In this document: one piece after another, positions 39,140-61,065 of the stretch | How the letters are laid out: each line of letters begins with the position of its first letter | Position numbering within the stretch: position 1 is the stretch's first letter | DNA from: an uncultured Alphaproteobacteria bacterium | GTDB lineage: Bacteria > Pseudomonadota > Alphaproteobacteria > UBA11222 | Direction of reading: 5' to 3' | Length of the DNA: 64,000 nucleotides | Assembly: GCA_947085465.1 (NCBI GenBank) | Contig: CAMTWQ010000047.1 | Coordinates: 3,408 to 67,407 of the forward strand | Made by a program: the position numbers and the translations under genes | The notes under the pieces: model-generated | Seen by the model: the letters and a program-made list of their open reading frames with translations, nothing else | Told to the model about the DNA's origin: nothing | Databases searched by the model: none

Positions 39140-40246
39140 TTACACAGCCTTGCGAGGCTGTATATTACCCGCACTAAGTTTGCCGCGCCAATGATCAAGT
39201 GTGGCAGTGGCGCGTTCCCCGGTCAATGTGTCAAACAGGCTGCATATCGTTTGCAGGCGGGCGGCCGGAACCGCCTTGCCCGTGCGGCCGCGCTCCAGCA
39301 GCAACATTGCCGTGGCGAACTGGCTCCGGTCCGCCCCGATGGCCCGGCAAAGCACCGCCAGGCCTTGCCCTTCGCTCTCAAAGGAGAGATTAGCCACCGT
39401 ATTTGTTTCAAGGCCGGTAAGCGCCGCCATGCCCTCAAGGAATAAATTCAGCCGCTTTTCGCGCAAAAATGCAATGACGCGCGTGACGCTCAATTCACCG
39501 CTTGCGTGCATCTTGGCGATTAACGCCTGCGCCTTGTTATTTGTCGCCGCAGCGGCAGGCGCCTCAGAGGGAGGCGTTTGAAAATCGCCAAGGGCGCCAT
39601 CTATGGATGCGGGATCGATCTCGAATCTTGAGAGTATTTCTTTTTTCAGCGCCGCCGAAACGAATGACAACATTTTTTGGGCCAGCTTTTCAGGAATATC
39701 CGCGCGCTCAACCAACGGCCCGCGCAGCTCTTTCAGGGACTCGCTTTCTGCAACCATATACGCCATCGCCGTCTCGGCAATTTCCGCACTCTGGTTCTTG
39801 GCCAGCGCCACCAGCACATCTGGCTCCCCGGTATTAACCAGCACAGTGGTCACCGCCGCGGTAATCCCCGAACGCATTGCGGTGCGCATACGGTGCTCAC
39901 GGGTTTTCCCGTTTATGATCGCAATCAAATCCTGCTCGTCCAGCAGCGGGCTATGCGCGATAACCGGTGACGCCACCAATATTTCATCGAGCATCAGCGC
40001 CTGAATCAGCTCTTTCGGGGCAAGCGGGCTATGCGCCAGCCGCTCAGCCAGGCGGCCCCTGACTTCTACTTCAAACGAGCGCGTTAGCCGGATGAGAATA
40101 TGCCCGGCAATTTCTTTTTCTTCCGGTTTAAGTGTGTGATTTGGCGTGAGGCAAAGATCAATAAGCTCATCTGACAATGCTTCCCGTGACTGCTGACTTA
40201 CATCGGCGGCAAGCGCGACGAGTCTCTGAATCCCCGCGTCACTCAT
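39140..40246 (-). CDS. DUF2336 domain protein (paralog 1)
   Basis: All-helical 368-aa protein, paralogous to the adjacent gene, with shared blocks EKEIAGHILIRL, DEILVASPVIAHSPLL-EQDLI and ASGELSVTRVIAFLRE. Confidence 0.65.
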   Translation of the reverse strand: MSDAGIQRLVALAADVSQQSREALSDELIDLCLTPNHTLKPEEKEIAGHILIRLTRSFEVEVRGRLAERLAHSPLAPKELIQALMLDEILVASPVIAHSPLLDEQDLIAIINGKTREHRMRTAMRSGITAAVTTVLVNTGEPDVLVALAKNQSAEIAETAMAYMVAESESLKELRGPLVERADIPEKLAQKMLSFVSAALKKEILSRFEIDPASIDGALGDFQTPPSEAPAAAATNNKAQALIAKMHASGELSVTRVIAFLREKRLNLFLEGMAALTGLETNTVANLSFESEGQGLAVLCRAIGADRSQFATAMLLLERGRTGKAVPAARLQTICSLFDTLTGERATATLDHWRGKLSAGNIQPRKAV

Positions 40247-40252
40247 AAACTA

Positions 40253-41377
40253 TCACGCTGCGTTACTTGCAGGCTGGGCCCCGCCCGTCTTGGTGCGCCA
40301 ATGCTCAAGCACCGCATGCGCGCGGTCCTCGGTGAGTGAATCAAACAGCCGGCAAACATATTGCAGATGGCTGGCTGGCGCCGGATCGCCGCCTTGCGCC
40401 TGTTTCAGCAGCAGGGCAGCCGAAATGAATTGGCCGCGATCAGCGCCCGCCGCACGGCAAATTACGGCAAGCCCCTTGTCCTCGCTTTCAGATGCAAAAT
40501 GGGTAAGGTTTTGGACATCGCATCTGACAAGGACAGCCATGCCTTCATAGAATAGCTGTAAATGCCTTTCGCGCAAAAATGCGATCACCCGGGCGACATT
40601 CAATTCACCGCTGGCGTGCAATTTGTCAATGAGCGTGGCGGCCTTATTACTGGAGTCTTTCAATCGCGCCGCGCCCGTGAGCGCCTGCTCCTGATTTACC
40701 TGACCAAGCGCACGATCGATAGTTTCAGGCTCAACGTCAAAATTGAGTAGAATATGCCGCCTTAATTCAGCGGATACGAATGCGAGCATTTTCTGCGCCA
40801 GTTGCGGCGGCAAATCAGCGCGCGCAATGATCGCTTCTTGCAAACTTGCGCGCGACCTGCTCTCCTCAACCATATACGCCATCGCAGCCAATGCAATTTC
40901 CGCAGTCGCGTTATTGATCAGTACACTTATCACATCAGGCTCGCGCTCAAACACAAGAGCGTCACTTACAGCGGCGGAAATCCCGGGACGCCCCGCAACA
41001 ATCAGGCGGTGCGCGCGGGTTTTATTTTTTATTACGTCAATGAGATCCTGCTCATTAAGCAGCGGGCTTTGCGCAATTACTGGCGCTGCTACGATAATTT
41101 CATCCATTGCCAAAGCGTAAATCAATTGTTTGGGCGCGATACCGGACACCGCAAGCTTTTCAGCAAGCTGGGCGCGCATATCAATTTCAAACTCACGCAG
41201 CAGACGGATAAGTATCTCGCCGGCCAGTTGATTTTCCTCAGGGCTGAGTTGATACTTGCCTTCATTGCCGGTAAGGCATAGTTCGCAAACGCGCTCGGAT
41301 AACGCACGCCTTGCCCGGGCGCTGTTATCCCGCGCCAGCGAAATAAGCTCAGTGATCACGGAATTATCCATGCCCAT
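40253..41377 (-). CDS. DUF2336 domain protein (paralog 2)
   Basis: 374 aa, roughly 35-40% identical to paralog 1 in a tandem arrangement, with shared blocks ENQLAGEILIRL, DEIIVAAPVIAQSPLLNEQDLI and ASGELNVARVIAFLRE. Confidence 0.65.
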   Translation of the reverse strand: MGMDNSVITELISLARDNSARARRALSERVCELCLTGNEGKYQLSPEENQLAGEILIRLLREFEIDMRAQLAEKLAVSGIAPKQLIYALAMDEIIVAAPVIAQSPLLNEQDLIDVIKNKTRAHRLIVAGRPGISAAVSDALVFEREPDVISVLINNATAEIALAAMAYMVEESRSRASLQEAIIARADLPPQLAQKMLAFVSAELRRHILLNFDVEPETIDRALGQVNQEQALTGAARLKDSSNKAATLIDKLHASGELNVARVIAFLRERHLQLFYEGMAVLVRCDVQNLTHFASESEDKGLAVICRAAGADRGQFISAALLLKQAQGGDPAPASHLQYVCRLFDSLTEDRAHAVLEHWRTKTGGAQPASNAA

Positions 41378-44708: not shown

Positions 44709-45494
44709 CTAATAGGCAGACATGCCACCTTCTGCGGGCACGCTAACGCCATTGATCATGCGCGATTCGTCCGACGCCAGGAACAGCGCGATATTGGCGA
44801 TGTCCTGCGGCTGGCCGATGCCGAACGGATAGCGCTTTGCGTTGATGGCGCCGCCGGGTTGCGGGAGTTCGTTGCCGCCGCCAGCCGGGGCTGCGCCAAA
44901 CCGCGATTTCACCCGATCGGTTAAAATAATGCCGGGGCAGATCGCATTGGCGCGGATATTGTCACGGTAATATTGCCCGGCGAGCGAACGGGTGAACGAG
45001 ATAATCCCGCCCTTGGCCGCCGAATAGACCATCACCCCAAGATTGCCCTTCAATGCGGCCACCGAGGAGACGTTGACGATGGCCCCGCCGCCCGCCTTGA
45101 TCAGATGCGGAATGCCATGCCGGCAGCACAGGAACGGCCCCTTGAGATCGAAATTCATGGTGAAGTCCCAGACGCCGAGATCGACATCGGTGACTTTTTT
45201 ATCCTCAACAATCGAGCCGCCGGCGCAATTGAATAGAATGTTCAGCTTGCCGTATCTGGCCGCCGCGGCGTCAACGCCCACCTTGACGCTAGCGTCATTG
45301 GTGACATCGGTTTGAAAGAATGTGGCGTCGCCGCCGGCGGCGCGAATTTCCGCCTCGCACGCCTTGCCCAAATCTTCCTTCAATTCGAGAATGCCGACCT
45401 TAGCCCCCTCGCGGGCGAAAATATTCGCCGCCGCCCGCGCAATGCCCGAGCCAGCGCCCGTGATGGTCGCCACTTTACCGTCCAGCCTGCCCAT
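44709..45494 (-). CDS. SDR-family oxidoreductase (copy 1)
   Basis: TGAGSGIARAAA Rossmann motif, NCAG, and the S...YxxxK catalytic triad (YSAAK). Confidence 0.9.
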   Translation of the reverse strand: MGRLDGKVATITGAGSGIARAAANIFAREGAKVGILELKEDLGKACEAEIRAAGGDATFFQTDVTNDASVKVGVDAAAARYGKLNILFNCAGGSIVEDKKVTDVDLGVWDFTMNFDLKGPFLCCRHGIPHLIKAGGGAIVNVSSVAALKGNLGVMVYSAAKGGIISFTRSLAGQYYRDNIRANAICPGIILTDRVKSRFGAAPAGGGNELPQPGGAINAKRYPFGIGQPQDIANIALFLASDESRMINGVSVPAEGGMSAY

Positions 45495-45521: not shown

Positions 45522-46298
45522 CTAATAGGCCGACAAGCCGCCTTCTGCAGGCACGCTGACGCCATTAATCATGCGCGATTCGTCCGACGCCAGGAACAGC
45601 GCGATATTGGCAATGTCCCGCGGCTCGCCAACGCCGAACGGATGCCGCTTCATGCCCATCGCCTTAGCGACCTGGGACCGGTCGGCGTTGACATCGCCGC
45701 CAAAGCGCGACTTCACCCGGTCGGTCAGAATGACTCCGGGGCAAATCGCATTGGCGCGGATATTGTCACGGTAATATTGCCCGGCGAGCGAACGGGTGAA
45801 CGAAATCATCCCGCCTTTGGCCGTCGCATAGACCTGTCCGCCAAAACCGCCTTGTAACGCCGCAGCGGACGAGACGTTGACGATGGCCCCGCCGCCCGCC
45901 TTGATCAGATGCGGAATGCCATGCCGGCAGCACAAGAACGGCCCCTTGAGATCGAAATTCATGGTGAAGTCCCAGACGCCGAGATCGACATCGGTGACTT
46001 TTTTATCCTCGGCAATCGAGCCGCCGGCGCAATTGAACAGAATATTCAGCTTGCCATATTTTGCCGCCGTGGCGTCGATGCCGGCCTTGACGCTCGCGTC
46101 ATTGGTGACATCGGTTTGAAAGAATGTGGCGTCGCCGCCCGCTGCACGGATTTCCGCCTCGCAGGCCTTGCCCAAATCTTCCTTCAATTCGAGAATGCCG
46201 ACCTTGGCCCCTTCGCGGGCGAAAATATTCGCCGCCGCCCGCGCAATGCCCGAGCCAGCGCCCGTGATGGTCGCCACTTTACCGTCCATCCTGCCCAT
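45522..46298 (-). CDS. SDR-family oxidoreductase (copy 2, tandem paralog)
   Basis: N-terminal ~180 aa almost identical to copy 1 at both DNA and protein level; the C-terminal ~80 aa diverge. Start at the ATG at 46298. Confidence 0.9.
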   Translation of the reverse strand: MGRMDGKVATITGAGSGIARAAANIFAREGAKVGILELKEDLGKACEAEIRAAGGDATFFQTDVTNDASVKAGIDATAAKYGKLNILFNCAGGSIAEDKKVTDVDLGVWDFTMNFDLKGPFLCCRHGIPHLIKAGGGAIVNVSSAAALQGGFGGQVYATAKGGMISFTRSLAGQYYRDNIRANAICPGVILTDRVKSRFGGDVNADRSQVAKAMGMKRHPFGVGEPRDIANIALFLASDESRMINGVSVPAEGGLSAY

Positions 46299-46515
46299 GA
46301 TTTCCTCCCCGTTGCCGCCAGTGTTTATTGTCACCAGTATTTTTTGACTGGCCCCATTATGCATAACCAAAAGGCGGCGGCACTGATATTGTCAGCGAAT
46401 TGTCTGATTTCTTCGGCGATGACGTGGAAATGACAGGCTGCTTCGCCCCGATTGTGCATTGCGGGACAAACTGCTAGACCATGCGCCTGAACATTCCCCC
46501 AAACTGGCAGACCCC

Positions 46516-47980: not shown

Positions 47981-48832
47981 ATGCGCCGTGCGCTCGTCAT
48001 CGCGGCGCTTGCTTGCGCCAGTGGCGCGGCCAGCGCGCAGGAAACCATTATTATCGGCAATCCAAGGCCGCTGCCCAGCATTGAAGTGAATCTTGACGCG
48101 ATTGGACTGGCTTCGGGGCACGGCTCTCGCGCGCCCTATTCGGCAACCACCCTGCAAAATTCACGCACACCGCGCCTGGACACGCGGCCCGATTTACTGC
48201 CGCGCAATTTGGCGAATATGCCGCAGGCCCGCGCCGCCACATCGCAACAACTACCGCCGCCAATAGCTACAACCGGCACGCCGGTTGCCGTGCAACGGGA
48301 TGCATTTTTGCCGATGTCGCCGCAGCAACCCACATCCCAACCAAGGGCGCTGGAAGCGATGGCGCCGCCACCGCCAATCCCCAGCGTACGCCCGCCGCCC
48401 GGCGCGAAACGGCCAGAGATTTTGAGCGGCGCGCCGCCGCCCGTATCAATAATTGCGGCTACACCTCCCGAAGCATCGCCCGCGCCGCCACAAAGAGTTG
48501 CGGCCATGCCCTCGTCACCTGTGGCGGCGGCTGGGAAATTCCTGTTGTTCGATCCCGGCAGCGCAGACTTGAGCGCCGAGGCCGCAGGGCAGCTCAGTGC
48601 GCTGGTCGCAAGCCTGCGCGAAGGCGGCGCGCGGGTGCAGCTAAAATCCCACGCGAGCGGCAGTGATGATGGCGCGCAAGCGCGACGCATATCGCTGAAA
48701 CGCGCCCTGGCGGCGCGCGCGGTATTGATGGAGCAAGGCATCGACAGCACCCGCATCGACGTGCGCGCGCTCGGCCCCGTCGCGGATGGCGGCCCACCCG
48801 ACCGAATCGAAGTGATATTGCTCTCGCAATGA
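47981..48832 (+). CDS. secreted Pro-rich protein with C-terminal OmpA-like peptidoglycan-binding domain
   Basis: Signal peptide MRRALVIAALACASGAASA|QE, a long Pro/Ala-rich linker, and a C-terminal block (FDPGSADLSAEAAGQLSALV...RRISLKRALAARAVLMEQGI) consistent with an OmpA-like fold. Its stop overlaps the next gene's start (ATGA). Confidence 0.7.
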   Translation: MRRALVIAALACASGAASAQETIIIGNPRPLPSIEVNLDAIGLASGHGSRAPYSATTLQNSRTPRLDTRPDLLPRNLANMPQARAATSQQLPPPIATTGTPVAVQRDAFLPMSPQQPTSQPRALEAMAPPPPIPSVRPPPGAKRPEILSGAPPPVSIIAATPPEASPAPPQRVAAMPSSPVAAAGKFLLFDPGSADLSAEAAGQLSALVASLREGGARVQLKSHASGSDDGAQARRISLKRALAARAVLMEQGIDSTRIDVRALGPVADGGPPDRIEVILLSQ

Positions 48833-50055
48833 GCGCGCCATCGGATCAGGCCCAGCTTGCAGCGCCGCCGCCGGACGGCGCGGTTGCCACGATTCCATTG
48901 GAGACGTTCTCGGGCCAGCGGCGGTTTTTGATCCGCATGGGGGTATTTCTGGCCGCCACCACTGCTGTGGCGGTTGCGCTTACCGGGCCGCTCGGCCATG
49001 CCTTTGCCGTCAACCCGGCGTTAAACGGGCTGATCATCGCAGTGTTGCTGTTTGGCGTATTTTATAATTTCCGGCAGGTGCTGCAATTAGGCCCGGAAAT
49101 CGAATGGATTGAAGCGTTTCAGCGTGACAGTGCAGGCCTGCCCGCAGCGCCGCCTATTTTGCTGGCGCCGATGGCGGTCATGCTGGGCGAACGCCAGGGC
49201 CGTTTGCGGCTCTCGGCGCCGGCCACCCGCGCAATTCTCGATTCAGTTTTCATCCGGCTGGATGAATCGCGCGACAACTCGCGCTATATGATCGGGCTGC
49301 TGATTTTTCTTGGCCTGCTCGGCACCTTTTGGGGGCTGATCGCAACATTGAGTTCAATTGGCGCCACGATCCAGAATCTCTCCGTTGAGGGGGGCGACAT
49401 CACTGCCGTCTTTAATCAGATGAAGGCCGGGCTGCAAACGCCATTAAGCGGCATGGGCACGGCGTTTTCTTCATCGCTTTTTGGCCTAAGCGGATCATTG
49501 GTGCTGGGCTTTCTCGATCTCAACGCCTCGCAGGCGCAGAACCGTTTTTACAATGAATTCGAAGAATGGATTTCCGGCCTGACACGGCTGGGTTCGGGCA
49601 GTGCGCTGAGCGAAGGCGAAACTTCGGTTCCGGTTTATATCACCGCCCTGCTGGAACAAACCGCCGATAGTGTCGAGCGGCTGCAAAATGTGATCGCGCG
49701 CAATGAGGACAGCCGTGCGGCCGGCAATCAGGCGCTCATGTCATTGGCGACGCAACTGGCTACCCTCACCGATTCCATGCAGAACGAACAGAACATGCTG
49801 CGACGGCTGGCCGATAATCAGAGCGAATTGCGGCCTGTTCTGGAGCGCCTGGCGCGTCAGCGTGAAACCGGCGAGGGCGCCCTTGACATCGCCAGCCGTC
49901 AGCATCTGCGTAATATGGATGTGCAGCTATCGCGCCTGGTGCAGGATGTGGCGGATGGCAGGGAACGGGCGTTAAGCGAACTTCGATCAGAAATAAAACT
50001 GCTGACCCGAACCGTTGCTGGATTGGACGGCGAGCGGCGCAAGGATTCCTCCTGA
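48829..50055 (+). CDS. MotA/TolQ/ExbB-family proton-channel protein with ~170-aa C-terminal coiled-coil cytoplasmic tail
   Basis: Four predicted TM helices. The TM3 signature IFLGLLGTFWGLIATL matches the ExbB/TolQ LGLLGTVWGI motif. The C-terminal third is heptad-like and Q/E/R/L-rich. Translationally coupled on both sides. Confidence 0.75.
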   Translation: MSAPSDQAQLAAPPPDGAVATIPLETFSGQRRFLIRMGVFLAATTAVAVALTGPLGHAFAVNPALNGLIIAVLLFGVFYNFRQVLQLGPEIEWIEAFQRDSAGLPAAPPILLAPMAVMLGERQGRLRLSAPATRAILDSVFIRLDESRDNSRYMIGLLIFLGLLGTFWGLIATLSSIGATIQNLSVEGGDITAVFNQMKAGLQTPLSGMGTAFSSSLFGLSGSLVLGFLDLNASQAQNRFYNEFEEWISGLTRLGSGSALSEGETSVPVYITALLEQTADSVERLQNVIARNEDSRAAGNQALMSLATQLATLTDSMQNEQNMLRRLADNQSELRPVLERLARQRETGEGALDIASRQHLRNMDVQLSRLVQDVADGRERALSELRSEIKLLTRTVAGLDGERRKDSS

Positions 50056-51125
50056 TGACGGTGCGCGGCATCCGTGCGCGGCGCGCAGCGTTAGATATTT
50101 GGCCGGGCTTTGTTGATGCGCTGGCCAACCTGCTGCTGGTTGTCACGTTTGTGCTGTCCGTATTTATTCTGGCGCATTTTTATCTTTCGCAAGCATTGTC
50201 TGGACGTGATGACGCCCTGCGCGAACTCAATCGCAAGGCGCGGGATCTGGCGGAATTACTGGCGCTGGAAAAACAGGCGGGCGGCGAAATGCGCAGCGAG
50301 GTGGCGCGGCTTTCCGCCGCATTGCAAAACACCACCCGCGATCTGGATGCGCGCAGCGCCAAAATCGCCGAAACGGATCTAACCATTGCCCGCTTGCGCG
50401 ATCTTGTTCTGCAACGCGAAGGCGGTATCGCGGCCCTGGAAAAAGATATCGGCGCGGCACGCGGGGCGCTTTCCTCAGAAAAAGCAATCTCCAGCGCCGC
50501 CACCGCGCAAATCGTGCTGCTAAACGAACAGATTGCAGAATTGCGCGCACAGCTCTCGCGGGTAGAAGCCTCGCTGGATGCTGCTGAAATCAAGGACACC
50601 AGCAATCAGGTGATTATCGCCGAGCTTGGCGCGCGCCTGAACCAGGCTCTGGCCGCGAAGGTTGAAGAACTGGCGCGCTACAGATCGGATTTTTTTGGCC
50701 GCTTGAGGGACGTGTTGAGCAATACGCCAGGCGTGCGGGTCGAGGGCGACCGTTTTGTATTTCAATCGGAAGTGCTGTTCGCCTCCGGCTCGGCGGATAT
50801 TGGCGAGGCGGGAAAGCTTCAATTGCAAAAAGTTGCGGCAGCCTTGCTCGAAGTCGCGCCGCAAATTCCCGGCGAACTGAAATGGGTGTTGCGCGTTGAT
50901 GGGCATACGGACACGGTGCCGATTGTGACGCAACGCTTTCCGTCCAATTGGGAATTGTCGGCGGGGCGCGCAATTTCGGTAGTGAATTTTTTCATTGCTG
51001 AAGGCGTGCCGTCAAACCGGCTGGCGGCGGCGGGCTTTGGCGAGTTTCAACCGCTTGAGCCTGGCGATAACGAGGCGGCGCGCAACCGCAACCGCCGCAT
51101 CGAGCTAAAACTCACCGAGCGCTGA
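50055..51125 (+). CDS. MotB-like protein: N-terminal TM with conserved Asp, ~190-aa periplasmic coiled coil, C-terminal OmpA/MotB peptidoglycan-binding domain
   Basis: TM WPGFVDALANLLLVVTFVL parallels the MotB WKIAYADFMTAMMAFF proton-relay segment. The OmpA motif is GHTDTVPI...NWELSAGRAISVVNF...NRNRRIELKL. Start overlaps the upstream stop (TGATG). Confidence 0.75.
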   Translation: MTVRGIRARRAALDIWPGFVDALANLLLVVTFVLSVFILAHFYLSQALSGRDDALRELNRKARDLAELLALEKQAGGEMRSEVARLSAALQNTTRDLDARSAKIAETDLTIARLRDLVLQREGGIAALEKDIGAARGALSSEKAISSAATAQIVLLNEQIAELRAQLSRVEASLDAAEIKDTSNQVIIAELGARLNQALAAKVEELARYRSDFFGRLRDVLSNTPGVRVEGDRFVFQSEVLFASGSADIGEAGKLQLQKVAAALLEVAPQIPGELKWVLRVDGHTDTVPIVTQRFPSNWELSAGRAISVVNFFIAEGVPSNRLAAAGFGEFQPLEPGDNEAARNRNRRIELKLTER

Positions 51126-51875
51126 ACCTGTTTGTTTTAGCAGCAGCACGACATATAGCCCAGCGGCAAGCGCCGGACCGAATGGAAATTCAGCCGCCAG
51201 AGCATGATCTGGCTTCCTGCCCACCCGCCAGCCCAGCGCAAACACAATGCCAAAAACTCCTGACAGCATCATGAAGCTGGCAAGGCCGGCGGTCCCGCAC
51301 CAGATTCCCGCCATGGCGAAAAATTTAACATCCCCAAGCCCCAGCGCCTCGCGGCCCTTGAGGCGCGTAAATATGAAGCGCAATCCCAACGCAACGCCTG
51401 CCGCGATTGCCGCGCCGCCTGCCGCATCCATCCACTCAGGAAACCGGTAAGCGCCGCCAAGCAGCGCCAAAGCCATCAGCACTGCGTCGGGAATGATCAT
51501 AAATTCGAGATCAACCGCAATCACCACCAGCAGGCCGGCAGCCAGCAGCGCCAGCAACACCGCATCCAAACCAGGCCCCGCCGCCATGACGGCCAGCATG
51601 CTTGAGGCCGCCGCCGCAAGCTCAATCAGAGGATATCGCCGCCCAATGTTCGCGCCGCATTGCGCGCAACGGCCTCGGTTCCAGAGATAAGATAACAAGG
51701 GAGCCAAATCGCGCGCGCGCAAAGGCTTTGCGCAAGCAGGACAACAAGAGCGGCCAGCAATTACCGGCAAGCCGCGCGGCAGCCGGTAGGCGAGCAGGCT
51801 GGCGAAGCTTCCCATGCACAGACCAAAAAGCGCGGCTATTCCGGTCAGCAGCCAATCCGGCATCTCCGCCAGCAT
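51105..51875 (-). CDS. A24-family prepilin peptidase (PilD/GspO-type with N-terminal zinc-binding domain)
   Basis: CPACAKPL...RCAQCG tetra-Cys motif, catalytic Asp contexts (DLEFMIIPD ... GLGDVKF), polytopic membrane protein. Confidence 0.85.
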   Translation of the reverse strand: MLAEMPDWLLTGIAALFGLCMGSFASLLAYRLPRGLPVIAGRSCCPACAKPLRARDLAPLLSYLWNRGRCAQCGANIGRRYPLIELAAAASSMLAVMAAGPGLDAVLLALLAAGLLVVIAVDLEFMIIPDAVLMALALLGGAYRFPEWMDAAGGAAIAAGVALGLRFIFTRLKGREALGLGDVKFFAMAGIWCGTAGLASFMMLSGVFGIVFALGWRVGRKPDHALAAEFPFGPALAAGLYVVLLLKQTGSALGEF

Positions 51876-51884
51876 CGCGCGCTG

Positions 51885-52895
51885 CTACCGGCGCAATTGG
51901 TTGGTGAGAAGCGATACTTTCTCCGTCAGCCATGGCCGGATGCCGCCCGCGTCATGTTGATCCGCTGCAATATACAGCGCAGCGCCAAGCACTGAGACGC
52001 ATGACACCAACACCATTGTAGTGATCAATGCGGACGCCGGACGCCGCCACCAGCCGACCGGCAACTGATGCGAGCGGCGCAAACTTAATTGCCGGGCTTC
52101 TTTCACCGCCGCGCGCACATGTTTGGGCAGCACTTGCATGGCGCCTTCGGCATAGGCGGCAAGCAAGGACTTGTCTCCCAGAATATTCATCCAGCGCGGA
52201 TTGCCCCTGCCTGCCCGCGCCAGGGCCTCCAGCGCATTATCCGCGAATACTTCCATGGCGGCGTCTGGATTGCGGCTAGCCATCTTTACCCGGTAACGGG
52301 CATAGGCAGTGGCTTCTGAATCGGACAGCGGCTTCAATCCGAACGAAAAATTGATGCGCTGGGCAACCTGGCGCAAATCATGCCGCTGCAAAAGATTGTC
52401 GAGTTCCGGCTGTCCAAATAAAACGATTTGCAGCAACTTGCGTTTTTCGGTTTCTAGATTTGACAGCAGCCGGATCGATTCCAGGCCCGTTTCACCCAGC
52501 GCTTGCGCTTCGTCAACAAGCACCACCGCATTCACGCCGTCGGCGTGTTTTTGAATCAAGAAACGGTTCAGGCAATCATAAATATCCGCCGCTGATCCAA
52601 CATCCAATCCAAATTCGCGGCAAATGGCGCGCGCCACCCACTCGGCGTCATTGCGCGGATTATTCAGATAAGCGATCACAACATCATTGCCAGCCGCACT
52701 CAGCAGCATCCGGCACAGCAGCGTTTTCCCCGTGCCGACCTCGCCCGACACCTTGACGATGCCCTCGCCGCGCAAGATGGCGTAGCGCACTGACTCATAA
52801 ACTTCCTGATGCACCATTCCCGGAAAATACAGCCCCGTGTCAGGCGTCAGGGAAAACGGATGTTCGGCAAGATTAAAATGCGTCAAATAAGGCAT
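51885..52895 (-). CDS. ExeA/GspA/MshM-like AAA+ ATPase with C-terminal TM anchor
   Basis: Walker A GEVGTGKT and Walker B VVLVDEAQ; the typical ExeA-family N-terminus (FNLAEHPFSLTPDTGLYF); C-terminal TM ALITTMVLVSCVSVLGAAL. Confidence 0.8.
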   Translation of the reverse strand: MPYLTHFNLAEHPFSLTPDTGLYFPGMVHQEVYESVRYAILRGEGIVKVSGEVGTGKTLLCRMLLSAAGNDVVIAYLNNPRNDAEWVARAICREFGLDVGSAADIYDCLNRFLIQKHADGVNAVVLVDEAQALGETGLESIRLLSNLETEKRKLLQIVLFGQPELDNLLQRHDLRQVAQRINFSFGLKPLSDSEATAYARYRVKMASRNPDAAMEVFADNALEALARAGRGNPRWMNILGDKSLLAAYAEGAMQVLPKHVRAAVKEARQLSLRRSHQLPVGWWRRPASALITTMVLVSCVSVLGAALYIAADQHDAGGIRPWLTEKVSLLTNQLRR

Positions 52896-52896
52896 A

Positions 52897-54159
52897 TTAT
52901 TTCACCGTTAGAAACGCCATGCGCTGGCGCACGGTTTCTACTGGAATTTGCGCATCCTGTGCGCGGGTGGCGAGATCAAGGCATTGTGCGTAAAACCGCA
53001 ACGCCGTCTCCGGCTGGCCCCATTTGTCGTAAACCACCGCCAGATTGAAAGCATATTTCGCGTTGCGCGGTTCAAGCGCCACAGCGCGTTCCAGATGCCG
53101 CGCGGCGGGCTCATATTCTCCGCGCGCCAGATGCAGCATCCCGACTTGCGCTGGCACCAGCGCATTTTGCGGATTCAGCCTTATCAGGCGCTGCAACTGC
53201 TCCAGCGCTTGCGTGGAGTTTTGCGTGGAGAGCAGCGCAAGTAAATTCGTCAACGCCCACTCGTCGCCGGGATACGCCGCCAGCACCGCCTCAAAGGCGG
53301 CTAGCGCTTGTTGCGTGCGCTGCATTTTTTGCAGCGCCGCCGCCCGGCCGAGCAAGGCAAGCCGGTCATTTGGGTCATCCCGCAAAATTTGCGCGTAAAT
53401 ATGTTCCGCCTGCGCCGGTTCCCCACCCTCAAGCAGGCGCAACGCATTTTCATAGCGCGCCCGTGCCATATCTGTGTCGTTGGTGATTTGCATGCCAGGA
53501 CGCTCCTGCGCCAGCGCCGCAGCATCGCCCTCATGCTTTAGATCGACCGGCGGGCCGAGGGCAGCCATTTCACGCCCGGCCAATTGCGCATCGACGAATT
53601 TTTCCACACCCGCATCGCTGACATGTTTTGGCGCACGCACGGGTGGCGGTTCAGATGGCGCGCTATCCGCGCCAATACGTTGTGGCGGCTGAACAGGCTC
53701 AGGCGGAACGGTATCAGGTTCAGCAGGCGCCACCGGCGCACTTTCTGCACTTTGATCGGGGGAGATGGCTTCACTAGGCGGCAAACTCTCCACGGCCTCC
53801 GGCTGAACTTCCGGCGCAACTGCTTCAGAGGGCGTTGCCGCTGCGGGTTCGGGTAGCTGCGCCAGTTGCGGCGGCAAAGGTTCTAGCGGCGCCTCGGGCA
53901 TCAATAACAGCCCGGCGGATATGATCCCTGTAACCCCTACCAGGGACAGTAATATCCAGCGGCTCATGCGTCCGCCGGGGGCGCTGCTTTTGCTGGAGGA
54001 AAGTGTGTGCGGCGTCATGCGCCCGGCAACAGACGGCGCCGCGCCTGGCGCGGTTACGCTCGCAGCCTGCCCCAGCGCCCCAGATGATTTTAGGGGGGCC
54101 TGAGCGCCCTTTTCGCGCTGCTGCGTCGCCTGGGTAAGCGCCTTGTAAAGCAGGCTCAT
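52897..54159 (-). CDS. TPR-repeat membrane protein (MshN-like)
   Basis: Cytoplasmic N-terminus, one TM (WILLSLVGVTGIISAGLLL), a Pro/Glu-rich periplasmic linker and C-terminal TPR repeats. A 1-nt gap separates it from the ATPase gene. Confidence 0.65.
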   Translation of the reverse strand: MSLLYKALTQATQQREKGAQAPLKSSGALGQAASVTAPGAAPSVAGRMTPHTLSSSKSSAPGGRMSRWILLSLVGVTGIISAGLLLMPEAPLEPLPPQLAQLPEPAAATPSEAVAPEVQPEAVESLPPSEAISPDQSAESAPVAPAEPDTVPPEPVQPPQRIGADSAPSEPPPVRAPKHVSDAGVEKFVDAQLAGREMAALGPPVDLKHEGDAAALAQERPGMQITNDTDMARARYENALRLLEGGEPAQAEHIYAQILRDDPNDRLALLGRAAALQKMQRTQQALAAFEAVLAAYPGDEWALTNLLALLSTQNSTQALEQLQRLIRLNPQNALVPAQVGMLHLARGEYEPAARHLERAVALEPRNAKYAFNLAVVYDKWGQPETALRFYAQCLDLATRAQDAQIPVETVRQRMAFLTVK

Positions 54160-54256
54160 TCCTGATTCCCGCCCGATCCTATGCTTGCGCTTTGCTCAAG
54201 CGCCTGATTCGCGTGCCATTAATACATGAACCGTTCGGCCAGGATGCGCAAGAGCA

Positions 54257-56197
54257 TCAGGCATGCCAACGCTGCTTCCAGGCCTGAAACATCAGCACAT
54301 TCCAGATCAGATAGGGGCTTTCGCTGCCTGCTTGCAGCCGTCGCCAGGCCGTGTGCACCGCCTTGGCGTTAAAGAACCCGTCCGCTTCCAGCGCTTGCGG
54401 CGCCAGCAACGCCTCGGCCCAGCCCCTGAGCGGACCACACAGCCATTGCTGCAAGGGAATGCCAAAACCGGCCTTTGGCCGGGCCATCAAATGGCGCGGC
54501 ACATAAGCGTCGAGTATTTGCCGCAATATCCATTTGCCCTCTCCGCCACGCAATTTCATCGATAATGGCAGCGTCCAGGCAAATTCAATCAACCGGTGAT
54601 CGAGCAACGGCTCGCGCGCCTCCAGGCTCACCGACATGCTCGCCCTGTCCAGCTTGGTCATGATATCGCCTGGCAGATAGGCCAGCATGTCATGAAACTG
54701 CATTTGCGGCACAAAAGGCCCGGTTTGCAGCGCCACCGCCGGTTGTGCGGGCAGGCGCTCATTGGCTTCATGGCCGCCTGCGAAAAGACGGTGCGGGCGG
54801 TCCCCCTGCAACAACAGCAGCTGATACATTTCCATCGGGTTACGCGCACCGAGCGCGCGCGCGAGCTTATGCACCTTGTCGCCCACTTGCCGGGGACGAA
54901 AGGCGGCAGGAACCATTTGCGCCGCCTTGTCCCATACGCCAACCGGAACGCCTCGCAACGCCGCCATCAGCGCACGGCGCATTGGCAAGGGTATCGGGCC
55001 CACCGCGCGCCAGATGCGATCAAACCACACATACCGATTATAGCCCGCGAACAGCTCGTCGCCGCCATCGCCCGATAACGCGACAGTCACATGCTTGCGG
55101 GTGATCGCAGAGACAAGATGGGTAGGCAATTGCGAGGAGTCGGCAAACGGCTCGTCATACATATCCGGCAATTTCGGAACCAGCGCCAGCGCATCGGCTG
55201 CGGCAAAGTAATGCTCGGCATGCTCAGTCCCCAGATGCGCAGCGACTTTGCGCGCATGCGCCGCCTCATCAAAACCATCTTCTGAAAATCCAATGGTAAA
55301 GGTGCGGATGGGGCGTGTGCTTTGCGCCTGCATCAGGGCTGTGACCAGGCTCGAGTCAATGCCGCCGGATAAAAACGCGCCTAGCGGCACATCGGCCACC
55401 ATGCGCCGCTTCACCGCATCCTTAAGCAAGGCCTCTAGCTGCATGATTGCTTCGCGATCATCCATTCTTGCGGCGGCGGCGCCATTGCGCGCCACTTCCG
55501 CCATGGACCAATAAACGCGCTGTGTGATGCGCCCGCCCGCATCCAATGTCAGTATGGTTGCGGGTTCAAGCTTATGCACCGCCTGATAGATGCTGTTAGG
55601 CGCCTGAATATAGGAATAGGCCAGCAGATCGCCAATTGCATCCCGGTCAATTTGCGGACGCCAGCCGTCAAAGGCGTGCAACGCCTTTAACTCCGATCCA
55701 AACAGAAACAAATTATCCGTGTACGTCCAGTATAGCGGCTTAACGCCGATCCGGTCTCGTATCAGGCTGAGCGCATGCTCCTGATTATCCCACACCGCAA
55801 TGGCGAACATGCCAAGCAGCTTGTGCACCATGGCCTCGACGCCCCAGCAGGCAAAGCCTTCGAGGATAACCTCGGTGTCGGAATGGCCGCGAAAAAGCGC
55901 GCCGCGTTTTTCTAATTCCTGCCGCAATTCGGTAAAATTATACACCTCGCCATTATAGGCGATGATGAAGCGCCCATTCGCAGAACGCATGGGCTGCGCG
56001 CCAAGCGGCGAAAGATCAATGATCGACAGCCGCCGATGCCCGATGCCCACGCCCTGGCTGGCGTCGGCCCACACGCCGCCATCATCCGGCCCGCGATGCA
56101 ACAGACGGTCAGCCATGCGGCGCGCCTGATCCTGGAGCTGATCAAACCCTGCGCTGCGGCCCCGGCGGCGGTCAACAAAACCGGCTAGTCCGCACAT
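54257..56197 (-). CDS. asnB: asparagine synthase (glutamine-hydrolysing) family amidotransferase
   Basis: Start MCGLAGF (Cys2 nucleophile after Met removal) and a synthetase-domain SGGIDSS PP-loop; 646 aa. Start set at the ATG at 56197. Confidence 0.88.
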   Translation of the reverse strand: MCGLAGFVDRRRGRSAGFDQLQDQARRMADRLLHRGPDDGGVWADASQGVGIGHRRLSIIDLSPLGAQPMRSANGRFIIAYNGEVYNFTELRQELEKRGALFRGHSDTEVILEGFACWGVEAMVHKLLGMFAIAVWDNQEHALSLIRDRIGVKPLYWTYTDNLFLFGSELKALHAFDGWRPQIDRDAIGDLLAYSYIQAPNSIYQAVHKLEPATILTLDAGGRITQRVYWSMAEVARNGAAAARMDDREAIMQLEALLKDAVKRRMVADVPLGAFLSGGIDSSLVTALMQAQSTRPIRTFTIGFSEDGFDEAAHARKVAAHLGTEHAEHYFAAADALALVPKLPDMYDEPFADSSQLPTHLVSAITRKHVTVALSGDGGDELFAGYNRYVWFDRIWRAVGPIPLPMRRALMAALRGVPVGVWDKAAQMVPAAFRPRQVGDKVHKLARALGARNPMEMYQLLLLQGDRPHRLFAGGHEANERLPAQPAVALQTGPFVPQMQFHDMLAYLPGDIMTKLDRASMSVSLEAREPLLDHRLIEFAWTLPLSMKLRGGEGKWILRQILDAYVPRHLMARPKAGFGIPLQQWLCGPLRGWAEALLAPQALEADGFFNAKAVHTAWRRLQAGSESPYLIWNVLMFQAWKQRWHA

Positions 56198-56284
56198 TTT
56201 ATCTTGTGCATGTAAGTTCCAATTGATTCCGCGCGTGAGAGTAGGCCAACCAGTGGCCAACCGCTATAGTAGCAACTAGAGCAG

Positions 56285-56420
56285 CCTGCGATTGGCTTGC
56301 GAGAATTAAATAGGGTCAGACTCGATTTAGGATAATGCCAGATATGACAGCAAGTTAAGAAATTAAATCGAGTCTGACCCTATTTAATTCTTGACCCTAT
56401 TTAATTCTCAAGGTGCACCT
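56285..56420. repeat. AT-rich palindromic MITE-like element (left copy)
   Basis: A ctagagcagcctgcgatt head, then a perfect 22-bp inverted repeat aaatagggtcagactcgattta / taaatcgagtctgaccctattt around a 32-nt loop, then an aattcttgaccctatttaatt tail. Confidence 0.7.
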
Positions 56421-57542
56421 GTGACAGGCTCTAAACCGGATGAAAGCCAGCAGAACGGCGTTACCCCTCAATTCTGGGCGGGGAAGCGGGTGCTGCTGAC
56501 CGGGCATACGGGATTTAAGGGAAGCTGGCTGTCGATCTGGCTCGCCAAAATGGGGGCGGAGATATTTGGCTATGCCCTTGCCCCCGAGCATCCCGAAGAT
56601 ATGTTTGCAGCCCTTGATCTTCCGGCGCTGCTGCCGCAATTGCGTCATCGCATCGGCGATGTGCGCGATCTGGGCGCTTTGACAGAGCTTGTGCGCGAAG
56701 CGCGGCCAGAAATAATCATTCACATGGCGGCGCAGCCATTGGTGCGGCGCTCCTACCGGCTGCCCATAGAGACCTTTGCAGTGAACGCCATGGGCACGGC
56801 GCATGTGCTGGAGGCAGCCCGCACTTTTGACGGTGTCAGCGCCATTGTCATCGTCACCACTGACAAAGTGTATGAAAATCTTGGCCATGACCTGGCCTAT
56901 GGCGAGGGCGACCGGCTGGGCGGGCATGACCCCTACAGCGCCAGCAAGGCGATGGCCGAGATGGTCACCAGCGCCTACCGCCGCTCGTTTTTCAGCACCG
57001 GCGTCCCAGGGGGCCTTCCGGCCACGGCCACGGCGCGCGCCGGCAATGTGATCGGCGGCGGCGACTGGAGCGAGGATAGGCTGATCCCCGACGCCATGCG
57101 CGCCTGGCGCAAAGGCGGGGAATTGATCCTGCGCAATCCCCATGCGAACCGGCCTTGGCAGCATGTGATCGATCCATTGCGCGGTTATCTGATGCTGGCG
57201 CAAGCGCTGGTTAAAGATGGCCCGCGCTATGCCCAGGCATGGAATTTTGGCCCTGAAATGCGCGCCGTTTACGAGGTGCAGGAAGTCATCACCCGCCTGG
57301 CGGACGTCATGCGCGCGCGCGGCCTGGATGCGCAATGGCGCGTTGAGGCGCAACCCGGCCAGCCACACGAAGCCATGCTGCTGCAACTGGATTGCCGCAA
57401 GGCGCGCGAGGAATTGCAGTGGCGCTCAATGCTTGATCTTGATGCAGCCCTTTCACACACCGCCGCGTGGTATCACGCGCAAATCAGCGGCGCCTCTGCG
57501 CAGGCGCTGTGCGAGCTCACGCTCCAGCAAATTGAGAATTAA
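56421..57542 (+). CDS. rfbG: CDP-glucose 4,6-dehydratase-like NAD-dependent epimerase/dehydratase
   Basis: VLLTGHTGFKGSWLSIWL Rossmann/RfbG-type N-terminus, TDKVYEN and YSASK catalytic motifs. Probable GTG start at 56421; the ORF-track TTG at 56391 lies inside the repeat. The stop TAA lies inside the right repeat copy. Confidence 0.8.
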   Translation: MTGSKPDESQQNGVTPQFWAGKRVLLTGHTGFKGSWLSIWLAKMGAEIFGYALAPEHPEDMFAALDLPALLPQLRHRIGDVRDLGALTELVREARPEIIIHMAAQPLVRRSYRLPIETFAVNAMGTAHVLEAARTFDGVSAIVIVTTDKVYENLGHDLAYGEGDRLGGHDPYSASKAMAEMVTSAYRRSFFSTGVPGGLPATATARAGNVIGGGDWSEDRLIPDAMRAWRKGGELILRNPHANRPWQHVIDPLRGYLMLAQALVKDGPRYAQAWNFGPEMRAVYEVQEVITRLADVMRARGLDAQWRVEAQPGQPHEAMLLQLDCRKAREELQWRSMLDLDAALSHTAAWYHAQISGASAQALCELTLQQIEN

Positions 57543-58602: not shown

Positions 58603-59808
58603 TCACCGCCCGCTTGGCAGCTCATTAAATGGCAACTCGCTGTCTACACGGATTTCGCCCGGCAGTTTTAGCACCCGCTCGGCGATGATGTTTTTGAGAA
58701 TCTCGTCGGTGCCGCCGGCAATCCGGATACCCGGCGAGGACAGCCAGTCTTCTTCAAAGGAGGCGCGATAGGGCGATATCGTCCGGTCACGGATGATGCC
58801 GCCCATATCCATCATCTCGATGGCGAAGGCGGACAGATCCTGGCGGCGCGGCGCGCTCACCGCCTTGGCGATGGAGTTTTCCGGGCCAGGTGTTTGCCCC
58901 TTGCTCAGCGCCGTCAGCGAACGGAAGCGGGTGTATTTCAGCCCCTGGCTTTGCACATGCCAGTCGGCGATTTTTTCGCGCACCGCCATATTGTTGATGG
59001 CCGCGCCGTCAATCAGTTCGGTGTCGCGGGCGAGCTGGATCAATTCATCAATGCCAACGCCAGCACCCATATTGCCGACGGCGGAACGCTCGTTCATCAG
59101 CACTGTCAGCGCCACCTTCCAGCCATCGCCCACCGCGCCGATGCGGTTGCTATCTGGAATGCGTACATTTTCCAGGAACACTTCGTTGAAATGACTTTGG
59201 CCTGAAATCTGCCGGATGCGTTCCACCTTAACGCCCGGCGATTTCATATCCACAATGAAAAACGACAGGCCCTTATGCTTGGCGACGGTTGGATCGCTGC
59301 GCACTACAAGAATGGCGAGATCGCAATAATGCGCGCCTGATGTCCAGATTTTCTGGCCGTTGATGATCCAGTCATCGCCGTCTTTTTCGGCGCGGCTGCG
59401 AATGCCGGCCAGATCGGAACCCGCACCCGGTTCGGAAAATAACTGGCACCAGACTTCATCGCCATACAGTGCGGGCTTGATGTAACGCTGTTTTTGCTCC
59501 GGTGTGCCATGCACCATCATCATCGGCATCGCCATGCCAAGGCCAATCAAAAACACATTGCCCGGAAGGTTATATTGCGACTCTTCCTGGCCATAGATGA
59601 CGTTCTGCATGCTGGTGCCGCCCATGCCGCCATATTCCTTTGGCCAGGTGATCGCGGCATAACCAGCCGCGGCTTTCACTTTTTGCCACGCCTTGGATTC
59701 TGTGACGCCAACCCGCGAGCCCTTCTGAACCTCCATCACATTTTGTTTCAGCCAGCCTCGCACCTGGGCGCGAAAGGCGGCCTCTTCCGGCGTATCTTCG
59801 AAGTCCAT
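58603..59808 (-). CDS. acyl-CoA dehydrogenase family protein (paralog A)
   Basis: 401 aa, MDFEDTPEEAAFRAQV N-terminus, ACAD middle and C-terminal domains. Its start overlaps the stop of the next paralog. Confidence 0.88.
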   Translation of the reverse strand: MDFEDTPEEAAFRAQVRGWLKQNVMEVQKGSRVGVTESKAWQKVKAAAGYAAITWPKEYGGMGGTSMQNVIYGQEESQYNLPGNVFLIGLGMAMPMMMVHGTPEQKQRYIKPALYGDEVWCQLFSEPGAGSDLAGIRSRAEKDGDDWIINGQKIWTSGAHYCDLAILVVRSDPTVAKHKGLSFFIVDMKSPGVKVERIRQISGQSHFNEVFLENVRIPDSNRIGAVGDGWKVALTVLMNERSAVGNMGAGVGIDELIQLARDTELIDGAAINNMAVREKIADWHVQSQGLKYTRFRSLTALSKGQTPGPENSIAKAVSAPRRQDLSAFAIEMMDMGGIIRDRTISPYRASFEEDWLSSPGIRIAGGTDEILKNIIAERVLKLPGEIRVDSELPFNELPSGR

Positions 59809-61040: not shown

Positions 61041-61065
61041 GATCCTTGTCTCCTGTCCGGAATGA

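Follow-up and report, generated by a model that had tools for sequence, protein, structure and literature searches.

Which kind of envelope machine, if any, is encoded by three overlapping genes for a secreted OmpA-like protein (ORF1), a channel-like protein (ORF2) and a MotB-like protein (ORF3) in a 64,000-nt stretch of DNA from an uncultured alphaproteobacterium (the window)? 5:2 ion-driven motors have few known physiological outputs: they generate flagellar torque, power gliding and type 9 secretion, transduce force in Tol/Ton systems and signal in Zorya. An earlier note, made from the DNA letters alone, described the trio as one stator-like module, an ion-driven envelope machine distinct from flagellar stators, Tol-Pal and ExbBD-TonB and the best candidate for an undescribed system in the window. 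The three reading frames are indeed intact and coupled by ATGA and TGATG overlaps, both of which are visible in the sequence (Table 1).

Table 1. Coordinates of the genes and their features in the window.
Feature	Position	Strand	Remarks
ORF1	47981-48832	+	283 aa, counted from the signal-peptide start; mechanical ORF from 47897
ORF1 parts		+	Signal peptide 1-20, mature-N-terminal box, Pro-rich linker, OmpA-like domain 189-265
ORF1 N-terminal box PSIEVNLDAIG	48074-48106	+	Shortly after the predicted signal-peptidase site
ATGA stop/start overlap ORF1/ORF2	48829-48832	+	Read directly from the sequence
ORF2, A (channel/rotor) subunit	48829-50055	+	408 aa, intact
TM3 motif LGLLGTFWGL	49309-49338	+	Contains T166
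Cytoplasmic tail of ORF2, residues 232-408 (~175 aa)	49522-50052	+	Conserved helical modules, heptad periodicity
Tail motif LDIASRQHLRNMDVQLSRLV	49882-49941	+	Family form GLD..SR.HLRN.D..L.RL
TGATG stop/start overlap ORF2/ORF3	50053-50057	+	Read directly from the sequence
ORF3, B (stator/anchor) subunit	50055-51125	+	356 aa, intact
TM helix of ORF3 WPGFVDALANLLLVVTFVLSVFILAHFY	50100-50183	+	Asp21 at codon 50115-50117
Periplasmic helix/coiled coil of ORF3, residues 44-221	50184-50717	+	AF2, alignment, periodicity
OmpA/MotB-type peptidoglycan-binding domain of ORF3	50733-51122	+	DGHTD and NRNRRIELK; Pfam OmpA E=6.5e-16

All three genes are coupled here, as claimed, but what the family conserves is ORF2 together with ORF3, ORF1 being an optional accessory. 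The pair gave more than 8000 matches (2768 representative clusters). ORF3 directly follows ORF2 in 79 of 80 related loci, the two being adjacent in all 79 that are long enough to show it, with a spacing of mostly 3-30 nt. An OmpA-like ORF lies upstream of ORF2 in 54 of the 80 loci and is missing in about a third; the -4 overlap between ORF1 and ORF2 is identical in 14 related loci. The pair adjoins efp-suhB in the window and at most related loci. The order efp-suhB-(ORF1)-ORF2-ORF3 recurs in Rhodospirillales, Acetobacteraceae, Azospirillum, Kiloniellales and others, and in Sinorhizobium meliloti the pair also adjoins efp-suhB, with no ORF1 found at that locus. A phage collection held no match to the pair, and the only matches in a plasmid collection are chromosome-sized records. 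ORF2-ORF3 is a class-wide, syntenic alphaproteobacterial family, not one peculiar to the window, and its fixed position beside efp-suhB across orders argues for vertical inheritance rather than a defense island. Parts of the family are already known: the B subunit has an NCBI name and an NCBIfam equivalog model, NF006543, and apparent Komagataeibacter hansenii orthologs, named motA and motB, have been manipulated genetically (PMC6570709). The idea of an undescribed system peculiar to this window has to be given up.

ORF2 contains three strongly hydrophobic segments and a fourth, Gly/Ser-rich one, and is predicted to have four TM helices with an N-in/C-in topology. Foldseek searches with its AF2 model returned TolQ, ExbB and ZorA chains (prob ~1) and one PomA chain at rank 48. 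As judged from the model, the fold class is that of MotA/TolQ/ExbB/ZorA A subunits, which together with the translated LGLLGTFWGL motif upholds the topology first read from the sequence; the modest confidence of the model (pLDDT 69, pTM 0.46) counts against a motor. T166 is invariant in 59/59 sequences and pairs, in a phmmer alignment to 8qyh_A, with ZorA Thr147, the contact residue of the ZorB Asp (PMC11946911). S216 and S223 are invariant too, and conservation within ORF2 is highest in TM3 (0.86) and TM4 (0.92). From a reading of the motifs, we take S216 to be the equivalent of the TolQ or ExbB Thr. Polar Thr/Ser residues of the A subunit would, as far as the alignments tell, face the B-subunit Asp. 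The 30-residue N-terminal extension that the earlier note had listed as a distinguishing trait is not a trait of the family: its mean column conservation is 0.17, its pLDDT is below 50, and homologs mostly begin near residue 27.

The heptad-rich C-terminal tail, by contrast, withstood scrutiny. AF2 places helices at residues 191-255, 269-346 and 354-406; the heptad periodicity observed for 269-346 was reached by none of 2000 shuffles and that for 354-406 by 0.85% of shuffles. Tail conservation (0.65-0.76) is distributed over all heptad positions. D353, H359, R361 and N362 of the tail motif are invariant; the motif occurs once in the window's ORF2 and two to three or about seven times in homologs (repeats in P0072, P0091, P0121 and P0159). 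The distal tail motifs are missing from the ortholog in S. meliloti, indicating that the distal end of the tail is not universal.

ORF3 scores 434.3 bits against NF006543 (PRK09039, 'peptidoglycan-binding protein'; cut-off 305) over residues 7-356. W16, P17, G18, V20 and D21 of its WPGFVD motif are invariant in 35/35 homologs, in agreement with the MotB-type TM helix and Asp noted earlier, and D21 provides the conserved TM carboxylate of a B subunit. In the AF2 model, a single helix (residues 20-221) precedes the OmpA-like domain, which PDB MotS, MotB and PomB periplasmic domains match with E=5e-16 to 1e-11. The proposal of a long coiled coil holds for this helix and for residues 44-100, whose heptad periodicity was reached by 0/2000 shuffles, but residues 140-225 taken alone show no significant 3.5-residue periodicity. 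Both ends of the coil are conserved in the alignment and flank an insert of variable length; B subunits of the family range from 332 to 702 aa. The helix would span ~26 nm, and roughly up to three times as much in homologs, as compared to a gap of ~9 nm between inner membrane and wall in E. coli (PMC11946911). This excess makes a rigid-stator geometry questionable and weighs against a motor.

ORF1 begins with MRRALVIAALACASGAASAQ and has the parts ascribed to it, a signal peptide, a Pro-rich spacer and an OmpA-like domain: Pro makes up 39 of 283 residues (14%), and Pfam OmpA matches residues 189-265 (E=1e-11). The family form of its N-terminal box is approximately [IV]-x-[IV]-[DN]-L-S-V-[LI], and the corresponding regex matches 21/29 signal-peptide-bearing sequences, the window's own included. 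Where it is encoded, ORF1 would be a periplasmic wall-binding accessory, whose strand-like N-terminal box probably docks on the motor or another envelope component.

The closest profiles for both subunits are those of Zorya. In PADLOC, ORF2 matches ZorA1 (E=8e-16 over 147-344) and ZorA3 (3e-10 over 153-392), ORF3 matches ZorB3 (3e-24), and the ZorA1 and ZorA3 models match 15/15 family members tested. At the level of profiles, the pair thus appears to contain a ZorA/ZorB-like core, and the likeness of the channel tail to ZorA suspected in the earlier note is substantiated. As in ZorAB (PMC11946911, PMC11890865), the A subunit joins a TolQ/ExbB-like membrane core to a helical cytoplasmic tail, the Thr of a GTF(W/Y)GL motif faces the B-subunit Asp, and the B subunit bears an OmpA-type wall-binding domain. 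NCBIfam ZorA models score ORF2 far below their cut-offs, and BLAST picked up no similarity to ZorA1 or ZorB1 of Klebsiella; an hhalign comparison with one Klebsiella ZorA1 covers TM2-TM3 only (E=0.0018, 15% probability), a point against the motor reading. Best-scoring Zorya profiles and the helical tail could mean that the pair is an orphan or degenerate Zorya-type phage-defense sensor with effectors encoded elsewhere. However, PADLOC detected no ZorC, D, E, F or G among nine neighboring proteins, and tblastn with ZorC and ZorD found no match in the window or the 80 related loci, confirming the lack of partner genes first noticed by eye. Zorya is mobile or patchy, whereas the pair, devoid of effector genes, sits in a syntenic housekeeping context that is fixed across orders, and was not found in the phage collection. 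The architectures differ as well: the ZorA tail comprises ~500 aa (PMC11946911) versus ~175 in ORF2, ZorB has its wall-binding domain fused to the TM helix with no linker (PMC11946911) where ORF3 has a ~175-residue helix, and ZorA has three TM helices versus four in ORF2, which has a predicted extra N-terminal one. Together, these differences render a Zorya sensor very improbable.

Flagellar stators share other features with the pair. In MotAB, PomAB and MotPS, too, the A subunit has the four-TM, N-in/C-in arrangement predicted for ORF2, and the B subunit combines an N-terminal TM helix bearing an Asp with a C-terminal OmpA-like domain, the latter matching those of MotB, MotS and PomB in sequence. 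Homologs carry the annotations 'flagellar motor protein MotA' and 'chemotaxis protein MotB' in the source records, and the K. hansenii genes, which are adjacent and encode shorter proteins (348 and 321 aa), were interpreted as motility genes (Jacek et al., 2019, PMC6570709); overexpression there increased colony spreading. We assigned the K. hansenii proteins from primer-encoded peptides of the N terminus, internal sites and the C terminus. MTRPTTY, TLYQAF, AITVVK, QPLDNG and EFRLTDR* correspond to conserved motifs of the family, in the correct order and at the positions expected, and, judged from these peptides, MotA and MotB of K. hansenii very probably belong to the same family. Yet K. hansenii has no flagellum, according to its authors (PMC6570709), and the pair lies in no flagellar cluster among the loci examined. 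ORF2 is not matched by the NCBIfam MotA equivalog, lacks the torque-generating cytoplasmic domain of MotA, and has a cytoplasmic tail without counterpart there; in ORF3, a long helix replaces the MotB plug and linker. A second, specialized flagellar stator, a MotAB paralog, is therefore the reading to which we give least credence. Two further results count against the motor reading: Pfam MotA_ExbB gives ORF2 17.5 bits, under the 22.9 cut-off, and a family profile search found no solved 5:2 motor by sequence.

The K. hansenii work (PMC6570709) is silent on the architecture, on the tail that resembles ZorA, on the long helix of the B subunit and on synteny across the class. Alteration of motA/motB affected cell length, the spreading of colonies and the texture of the cellulose, and GFP fusions formed polar foci (PMC6570709, PMC7347698). 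These phenotypes stem mostly from overexpression, which counts against the motor reading, and the fusion of GFP to the periplasmic C terminus of MotB is open to technical doubt.

Similarity to TolQR-Pal and ExbBD-TonB lies in the housekeeping character of these envelope systems and in an OmpA-like wall-binding partner encoded alongside, as is Pal. One could envision a TonB/TolA-style transducer, in which an ORF2/ORF3 motor works on the wall or outer membrane by pulling a periplasm-spanning ORF1. ORF1 is coupled to ORF2, present at most loci, and shares a Pro-rich spacer with TonB and TolA; its strand-like box shortly past the cleavage site recalls, in our view, TonB-box or TolB-box docking, and GLLGTFWGL in TM3 of ORF2 resembles the GTVWGI motif of TolQ/ExbB. 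TonB and TolA engage ExbB and TolQ via an N-terminal TM anchor, but the ORF1 signal peptide is cleavable and leaves none, and no TM-anchored TolA or TonB analogue is encoded at the locus. Loci without ORF1, that of S. meliloti among them, are likewise hard to reconcile with this model. Unlike TolR and ExbD, ORF3 bears its own OmpA-type wall anchor and a long coiled coil, and NCBIfam TolR/ExbD models gave no match; ORF2 has no NCBIfam TolQ or ExbB match at E<=0.1 and differs in its long conserved tail. We consider such a transducer unlikely; the NCBIfam negatives, the gene context and the OmpA-type domain of ORF3 bear out the earlier view that the locus is neither a flagellar stator nor a Tol-Pal or TonB-ExbBD system. 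A static inner-membrane-to-wall tether that has lost ion conduction would suit the long coiled coil, the wall-binding domain and a B-subunit length too variable to square easily with precise stator geometry. The invariant Asp in the ORF3 TM helix, the invariant Thr and Ser of ORF2 and peak conservation in TM3 and TM4 form, in contrast, a pattern to be expected solely under selection on the ion path, and argue that a mere tether is very unlikely.

We favor, as the probable reading, that ORF2-ORF3 belongs to the MotAB/ExbBD/TolQR/ZorAB superfamily of ion-driven motors, as a non-flagellar member with a housekeeping function and a cytoplasmic output tail; given the invariant Asp and Thr, the ion-driven machine of the earlier note is a reasonable interpretation. 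Gene structure and synteny, the fold class, conservation, the invariant residues of catalytic type and the lack of Zorya partners can be read directly; beyond these, we infer 5:2 stoichiometry, rotation, ion use, a tail partner and a physiological role by analogy with solved members of the superfamily. An ORF3 dimer would sit in the center of an ORF2 pentamer, fixed to peptidoglycan via the C-terminal OmpA-like domains at the end of its long periplasmic coiled coil. The permeating ions, protons (or Na+), would pass Asp21 of ORF3 and a Thr166/Ser216 ring of ORF2 and thereby turn the ORF2 ring, tail included, around ORF3. Within the tail, the motifs VPAY..ALLEQTAD and HLRN.D may form an output or interaction element for a putative cytoplasmic partner. 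An envelope, cell-pole or division-related role is weakly indicated, in preference to motility or phage defense.

More tentatively, the pair may be a class-wide housekeeping sister of ZorAB, a wall-anchored rotary motor that relays the condition of the peptidoglycan or periplasm to a conserved partner in the cytoplasm, bound via the HLRN.D and VPAY motifs, at the poles or division site. If so, 5:2 motors would serve a fourth physiological purpose besides motility, Tol/Ton energization and phage defense, and the pair might resemble the ancestral form from which Zorya sensors were recruited. The family is a further candidate output of such motors, vertically inherited across a class with plant symbionts and industrial cellulose producers among its members, and is distinguished by a motif-bearing ZorA-like tail, a long, length-variable periplasmic coiled coil in the B subunit and the absence of effector genes. 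Should the motor reading be right, the pair would offer a tractable housekeeping model for signal transmission by ZorA-type tails and a way into the biology of the envelope and poles in Alphaproteobacteria. Short candidate interaction sites that can be tested are the motifs of the tail and the N-terminal box of ORF1.

A stator-like module of three same-strand ORFs had been described in an earlier note, and the observation was confirmed; the coordinates are collected in the table below. Calling it a three-gene unit was too strong. A one-genome-per-species scan returned at least 600 stretches, and among the best 80 the channel (A) subunit ORF2 is followed by the MotB-like, wall-anchoring (B) subunit ORF3 in 79, usually after a gap of 3–30 nt, whereas an OmpA gene of the type of ORF1, the secreted Pro-rich protein, lies 5' of ORF2 in only 54. 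In these 80 loci efp-suhB is found immediately upstream wherever the contig reaches far enough; ORF1 is missing from 14 of the 45 loci with suhB immediately upstream, and 8 of those 14 leave no space for it. Almost all of the 80 are from Alphaproteobacteria (Rhodospirillales, Acetobacteraceae, Azospirillum, Nitrospirillum, Kiloniellales, Thalassospira, Defluviicoccus and others), and the neighborhood of thiamine-phosphate synthase, efp/suhB, ABC transporter, rpmE and DUF1465 also occurs in an unrelated 5.2-Mb genome. In Sinorhizobium meliloti strain Ak57 the pair (LZK74_31000/30995) likewise adjoins suhB. A search of 50,697 phage records gave no match. Recurrent synteny and absence from these phage records thus identify the ORF2–ORF3 pair as a vertically inherited core unit to which ORF1 is accessory. 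A word-indexed search with ORF2 yielded at least 8000 matches; when representatives at 50% identity were searched exhaustively, 2768 clusters reached E ≤ 1e-3 and 564 reached E ≤ 1e-30.

Coordinates of the module and of flanking features in the window
Feature	Position	Strand	Basis or detail
ORF1-ORF2-ORF3	47981-51125	+	ORF calling
ORF1 box PSIEVNLDAIG	48074-48106		
ORF1 stop/ORF2 start overlap ATGA	48829-48832	+	sequence
ORF2 tail motif GLD..SR.HLRN.D..L.RL	49882-49941	+	translation; single copy in window
ORF2 stop/ORF3 start overlap TGATG	50053-50057	+	sequence
ORF3/prepilin peptidase 3'-end overlap, 21 bp	51105-51125		sequence
Prepilin peptidase gene, convergent	51105-51875	-	Pfam A24_N_bact + Peptidase_A24
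Tandem DUF2336 paralogs	39140-40246, 40253-41377	-	53% identity
Tandem SDR-family oxidoreductase paralogs	44709-45494, 45522-46370	-	85% protein identity
XrtA/PEP-CTERM-like set, three genes	51885-56260	-	
NAD-dependent sugar epimerase/dehydratase	56391-57542		
Three successive acyl-CoA dehydrogenase family ORFs	58603-62205	-	

Profile comparisons place the pair in the 5:2 motor superfamily, nearest to ZorAB. ORF2 scores 17.5 bits on Pfam MotA_ExbB, under the threshold of 22.9, and matches none of the NCBIfam TolQ, ExbB and MotA equivalogs, only ZorA subfamily models far under their cut-offs. Its top PADLOC match is ZorA1 (PDLC00597, E=8e-16) over residues 147–344, a span that reaches into the tail, and ZorA3 also matches (E=3e-10, residues 153–392); both models are matched by 15/15 diverse ORF2 family members tested. 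The top PADLOC match of ORF3 is ZorB3 (3e-24). Foldseek places the predicted ORF2 model in the A-subunit fold, retrieving TolQ, ExbB and ZorA chains and one PomA chain at rank 48. When ORF2 is aligned with E. coli ZorA by phmmer, at a single-sequence E of only 0.31, T166 (LGLLGTFWGL) falls on Thr147, which in ZorA contacts the essential ZorB Asp26 (PMC11946911). Alignments by hhalign with one Klebsiella ZorA1 (ORF2 family, TM2–TM3 only, E=0.0018, 15% probability) and one Klebsiella ZorB1 (ORF3 family, E=0.015, 3% probability) are weak; BLAST-level similarity to these proteins is nil in the window and the 80 loci, and the ORF2-family profile against PDB chains returned coiled-coil noise and no motor chain.

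The pair nevertheless fails the defining features of every characterized 5:2 family. The Zorya resemblance proposed in the earlier note was right, ZorA1, ZorA3 and ZorB3 being the best PADLOC matches, but ZorA has three TMs and a tail of ~500 aa and ZorB is without a linker (PMC11946911), whereas the ORF2 tail is ~175 aa long and ORF3 has a helix of ~175 residues. The reported absence of ZorC and ZorD also held: PADLOC identified no Zorya partners in nine neighboring proteins, and tblastn with Klebsiella ZorC and ZorD gave no match in the window or the 80 related loci. Flagellar stators and Tol/Ton had been correctly set aside as well. Unlike the former, the pair has no MotA model matches, no flagellar context and no plug-and-linker; unlike the latter, it matches no TolQ or ExbB equivalog, its B subunit is OmpA-type, and ORF1 has no TM anchor. 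These comparisons put the pair within the 5:2 superfamily and outside each of its characterized families.

The hydrophobic segments of ORF2 (408 aa) lie at residues 32–53, 55–82 and 152–181, with a fourth, Gly/Ser-rich, at ~206–230; the charge distribution of the protein would fit a four-TM, N-in/C-in topology. The AlphaFold2 model is all-helical (pLDDT 69), with tail helices at 191–255, 269–346 and 354–406. The 3.5-residue, heptad-type periodicity of 269–346 is above all 2000 shuffles, and that of 354–406 is significant (shuffle fraction 0.0085). Conservation is highest in TM3 (0.86) and TM4 (0.92), and in the tail (0.65–0.76) it equals that of TM1 and the periplasmic loop. Residues 1–31 are unconserved in the family (0.17), so the N-terminal extension, previously listed as a distinguishing trait, is a local or start-codon effect. 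Conserved residues occupy every heptad position of the tail, not the a/d core alone, and the tail motif listed in the table has undergone tandem multiplication, with 2–3 copies in the homologs P0072, P0091 and P0121 and ~7, separated by Pro/Ala linkers, in P0159. These two features of the sequences suggest that the tail is no generic coiled coil but a modular surface for specific interactions. P0121 also has a duplicated VPAY..ALLEQTAD helix.

The sole TM of ORF3 (356 aa) carries WPGFVD-ALANLLL..., and W16-P17-G18, V20 and D21 are invariant in the family alignment. The AlphaFold2 model (pLDDT 78) consists of an unbroken helix, residues 20–221, and an OmpA-type domain that matches the periplasmic domains of MotS, MotB and PomB in the PDB (E=5e-16 to 1e-11). 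Heptad-type periodicity is above all 2000 shuffles for residues 44–100 and significant for the whole coil (0.003); taken alone, residues 140–225 show no significant 3.5-residue periodicity against shuffles. The juxtamembrane AQFYL.QALSGRD.AL and the membrane-distal end of the coil, LLN.QIAALR...RLN.ALA.KVEELARYRSEFFGRLR, are nearly invariant, and the middle is an indel hotspot. The possibility that the ORF2 tail and the ORF3 coil are low-complexity artefacts, raised in the earlier note, was rejected since both are conserved and periodic; coiled-coil Pfam matches (Filament, crescentin rod, Cast, others) were treated as composition noise. At 0.15 nm per residue, a straight 177-residue ORF3 helix would measure ~26 nm, and those of homologs roughly 75–77 nm, against an inner membrane-to-wall distance of ~9 nm in E. 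coli (PMC11946911). The coil must thus run at a tilt or within the periplasmic plane, or else serve as a torsion element or flexible leash; the variation in its length (ORF3 family 332–702 aa, median 440, in the best 80 loci) argues against a fixed ruler. One locus present in two assemblies has its long B-subunit gene called as 692 aa (L082, 9226–11304) or as a 442-aa gene together with a spurious ORF in antisense (L083, 9094–9942), and the repetitive coiled-coil region of such genes appears to be mishandled by gene callers.

ORF1, read from the ATG at 47981, starts with a typical N-terminal signal peptide (MRRALVIAALACASGAASAQ), has a proline content of 14% and carries an OmpA-like domain at its C-terminal end (residues 189–265; Pfam, E=1e-11). 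Just past the predicted signal-peptidase site its orthologs share a short, strand-like box, roughly [IV]x[IV][DN]LSV[LI] (forms include QVTVDLHALDALP and PSVEVDLSVL); of the 29 sequences with a signal peptide that were examined, 21 contain this box, the window's own among them. Beyond the box, family members continue with a Pro-rich linker, whose length varies greatly, and then the OmpA-like domain. Box-bearing orthologs occur at the related loci L001, L007, L022, L024, L037, L043, L057, L069 and L076, among others.

The family is already catalogued and experimentally touched, yet mechanistically uncharacterized. ORF3 scores 434 bits over its full length on NCBIfam NF006543 (PRK09039, 'peptidoglycan-binding protein'; cut-off 305). 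Experimental work comes from Jacek et al. (PMC6570709), whose subject was Komagataeibacter hansenii, by their account a bacterium without a flagellum, and its only 'motA/motB' homologs; compared through the peptides that the primers encode, these genes match family motifs in the right positions.

Peptides encoded by the K. hansenii motA/motB primers and their family counterparts
Protein	Region	Primer peptide	Family
MotA	N terminus	MTRPTTY	MTRPTRY
MotA	internal	TLYQAF	position ~43
MotA	internal	NVSMVL	position ~70
MotB	N terminus	MARRSR	AARSRR
MotB	internal	AITVVK	AISVVK
MotB	internal	QPLDNG	QPLDPG
MotB	C terminus	EFRLTDR*	ELKLTER*

Overexpression gave longer cells in chains, 3x wider colony spreading and looser cellulose, disruption gave denser cellulose, and GFP fusions were polar or bipolar (PMC6570709, PMC7347698). 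These data, indirect because they come mainly from overexpression plus a periplasmic GFP fusion, argue for a role outside the flagellum, in cell shape or the envelope. Literature searches on PRK09039 and on ZorA-like, ZorAB-like or MotA/MotB-like proteins of Alphaproteobacteria found nothing on the ORF2–ORF3 family, nor does an mBio 2025 stator survey (PMC12505986) cover it. The earlier interpretation stands in its negatives and its Zorya likeness; 'undescribed', like 'three-gene', was an overstatement.

A working model can be proposed in which an ORF3 dimer sits inside an ORF2 pentamer, its dimerized OmpA-like domains holding peptidoglycan. Ion passage via D21 and T166/S216 would rotate ORF2 together with its tail, whose motifs may bind a cytoplasmic partner. 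ORF1 could be a second wall-binding element that docks by its N-terminal box.

A search for terminator-like sites between ORF3 and the prepilin peptidase gene facing it found none, and no site in the promoter and terminator scan exceeded shuffle expectation. A functional tie of the pair to this gene and the XrtA/PEP-CTERM-like genes beyond it was rejected, as other loci have different downstream genes. The latter set resembles exopolysaccharide-locus components, comprising an ATPase (TIGR03015, 207 bits, below cut-off), a TPR protein with a weak PrsT match and an amidotransferase (TIGR03108, 602 bits, below cut-off); this neighborhood, which in the window is followed by a sugar epimerase/dehydratase gene, is not kept beside the pair in other genomes. 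In the record CP090106.1 (L086, PLSDB; Sinorhizobium meliloti 'plasmid pSymB', 3.72 Mb), the core genes purE, rpmE and suhB accompany the motor pair, and the record looks like a chromosome filed as a plasmid; comparable 'plasmid' records of 3.5–4.6 Mb exist for Sinorhizobium sp. and Shinella. Elsewhere in the window, the identity of the tandem SDR paralogs suggests a recent local duplication, and a second tandem pair belongs to DUF2336, an uncharacterized conserved bacterial family. As called mechanically, at 59808–61256 and 61066–62205, two of the acyl-CoA dehydrogenase ORFs overlap; the first of these therefore probably starts further downstream.
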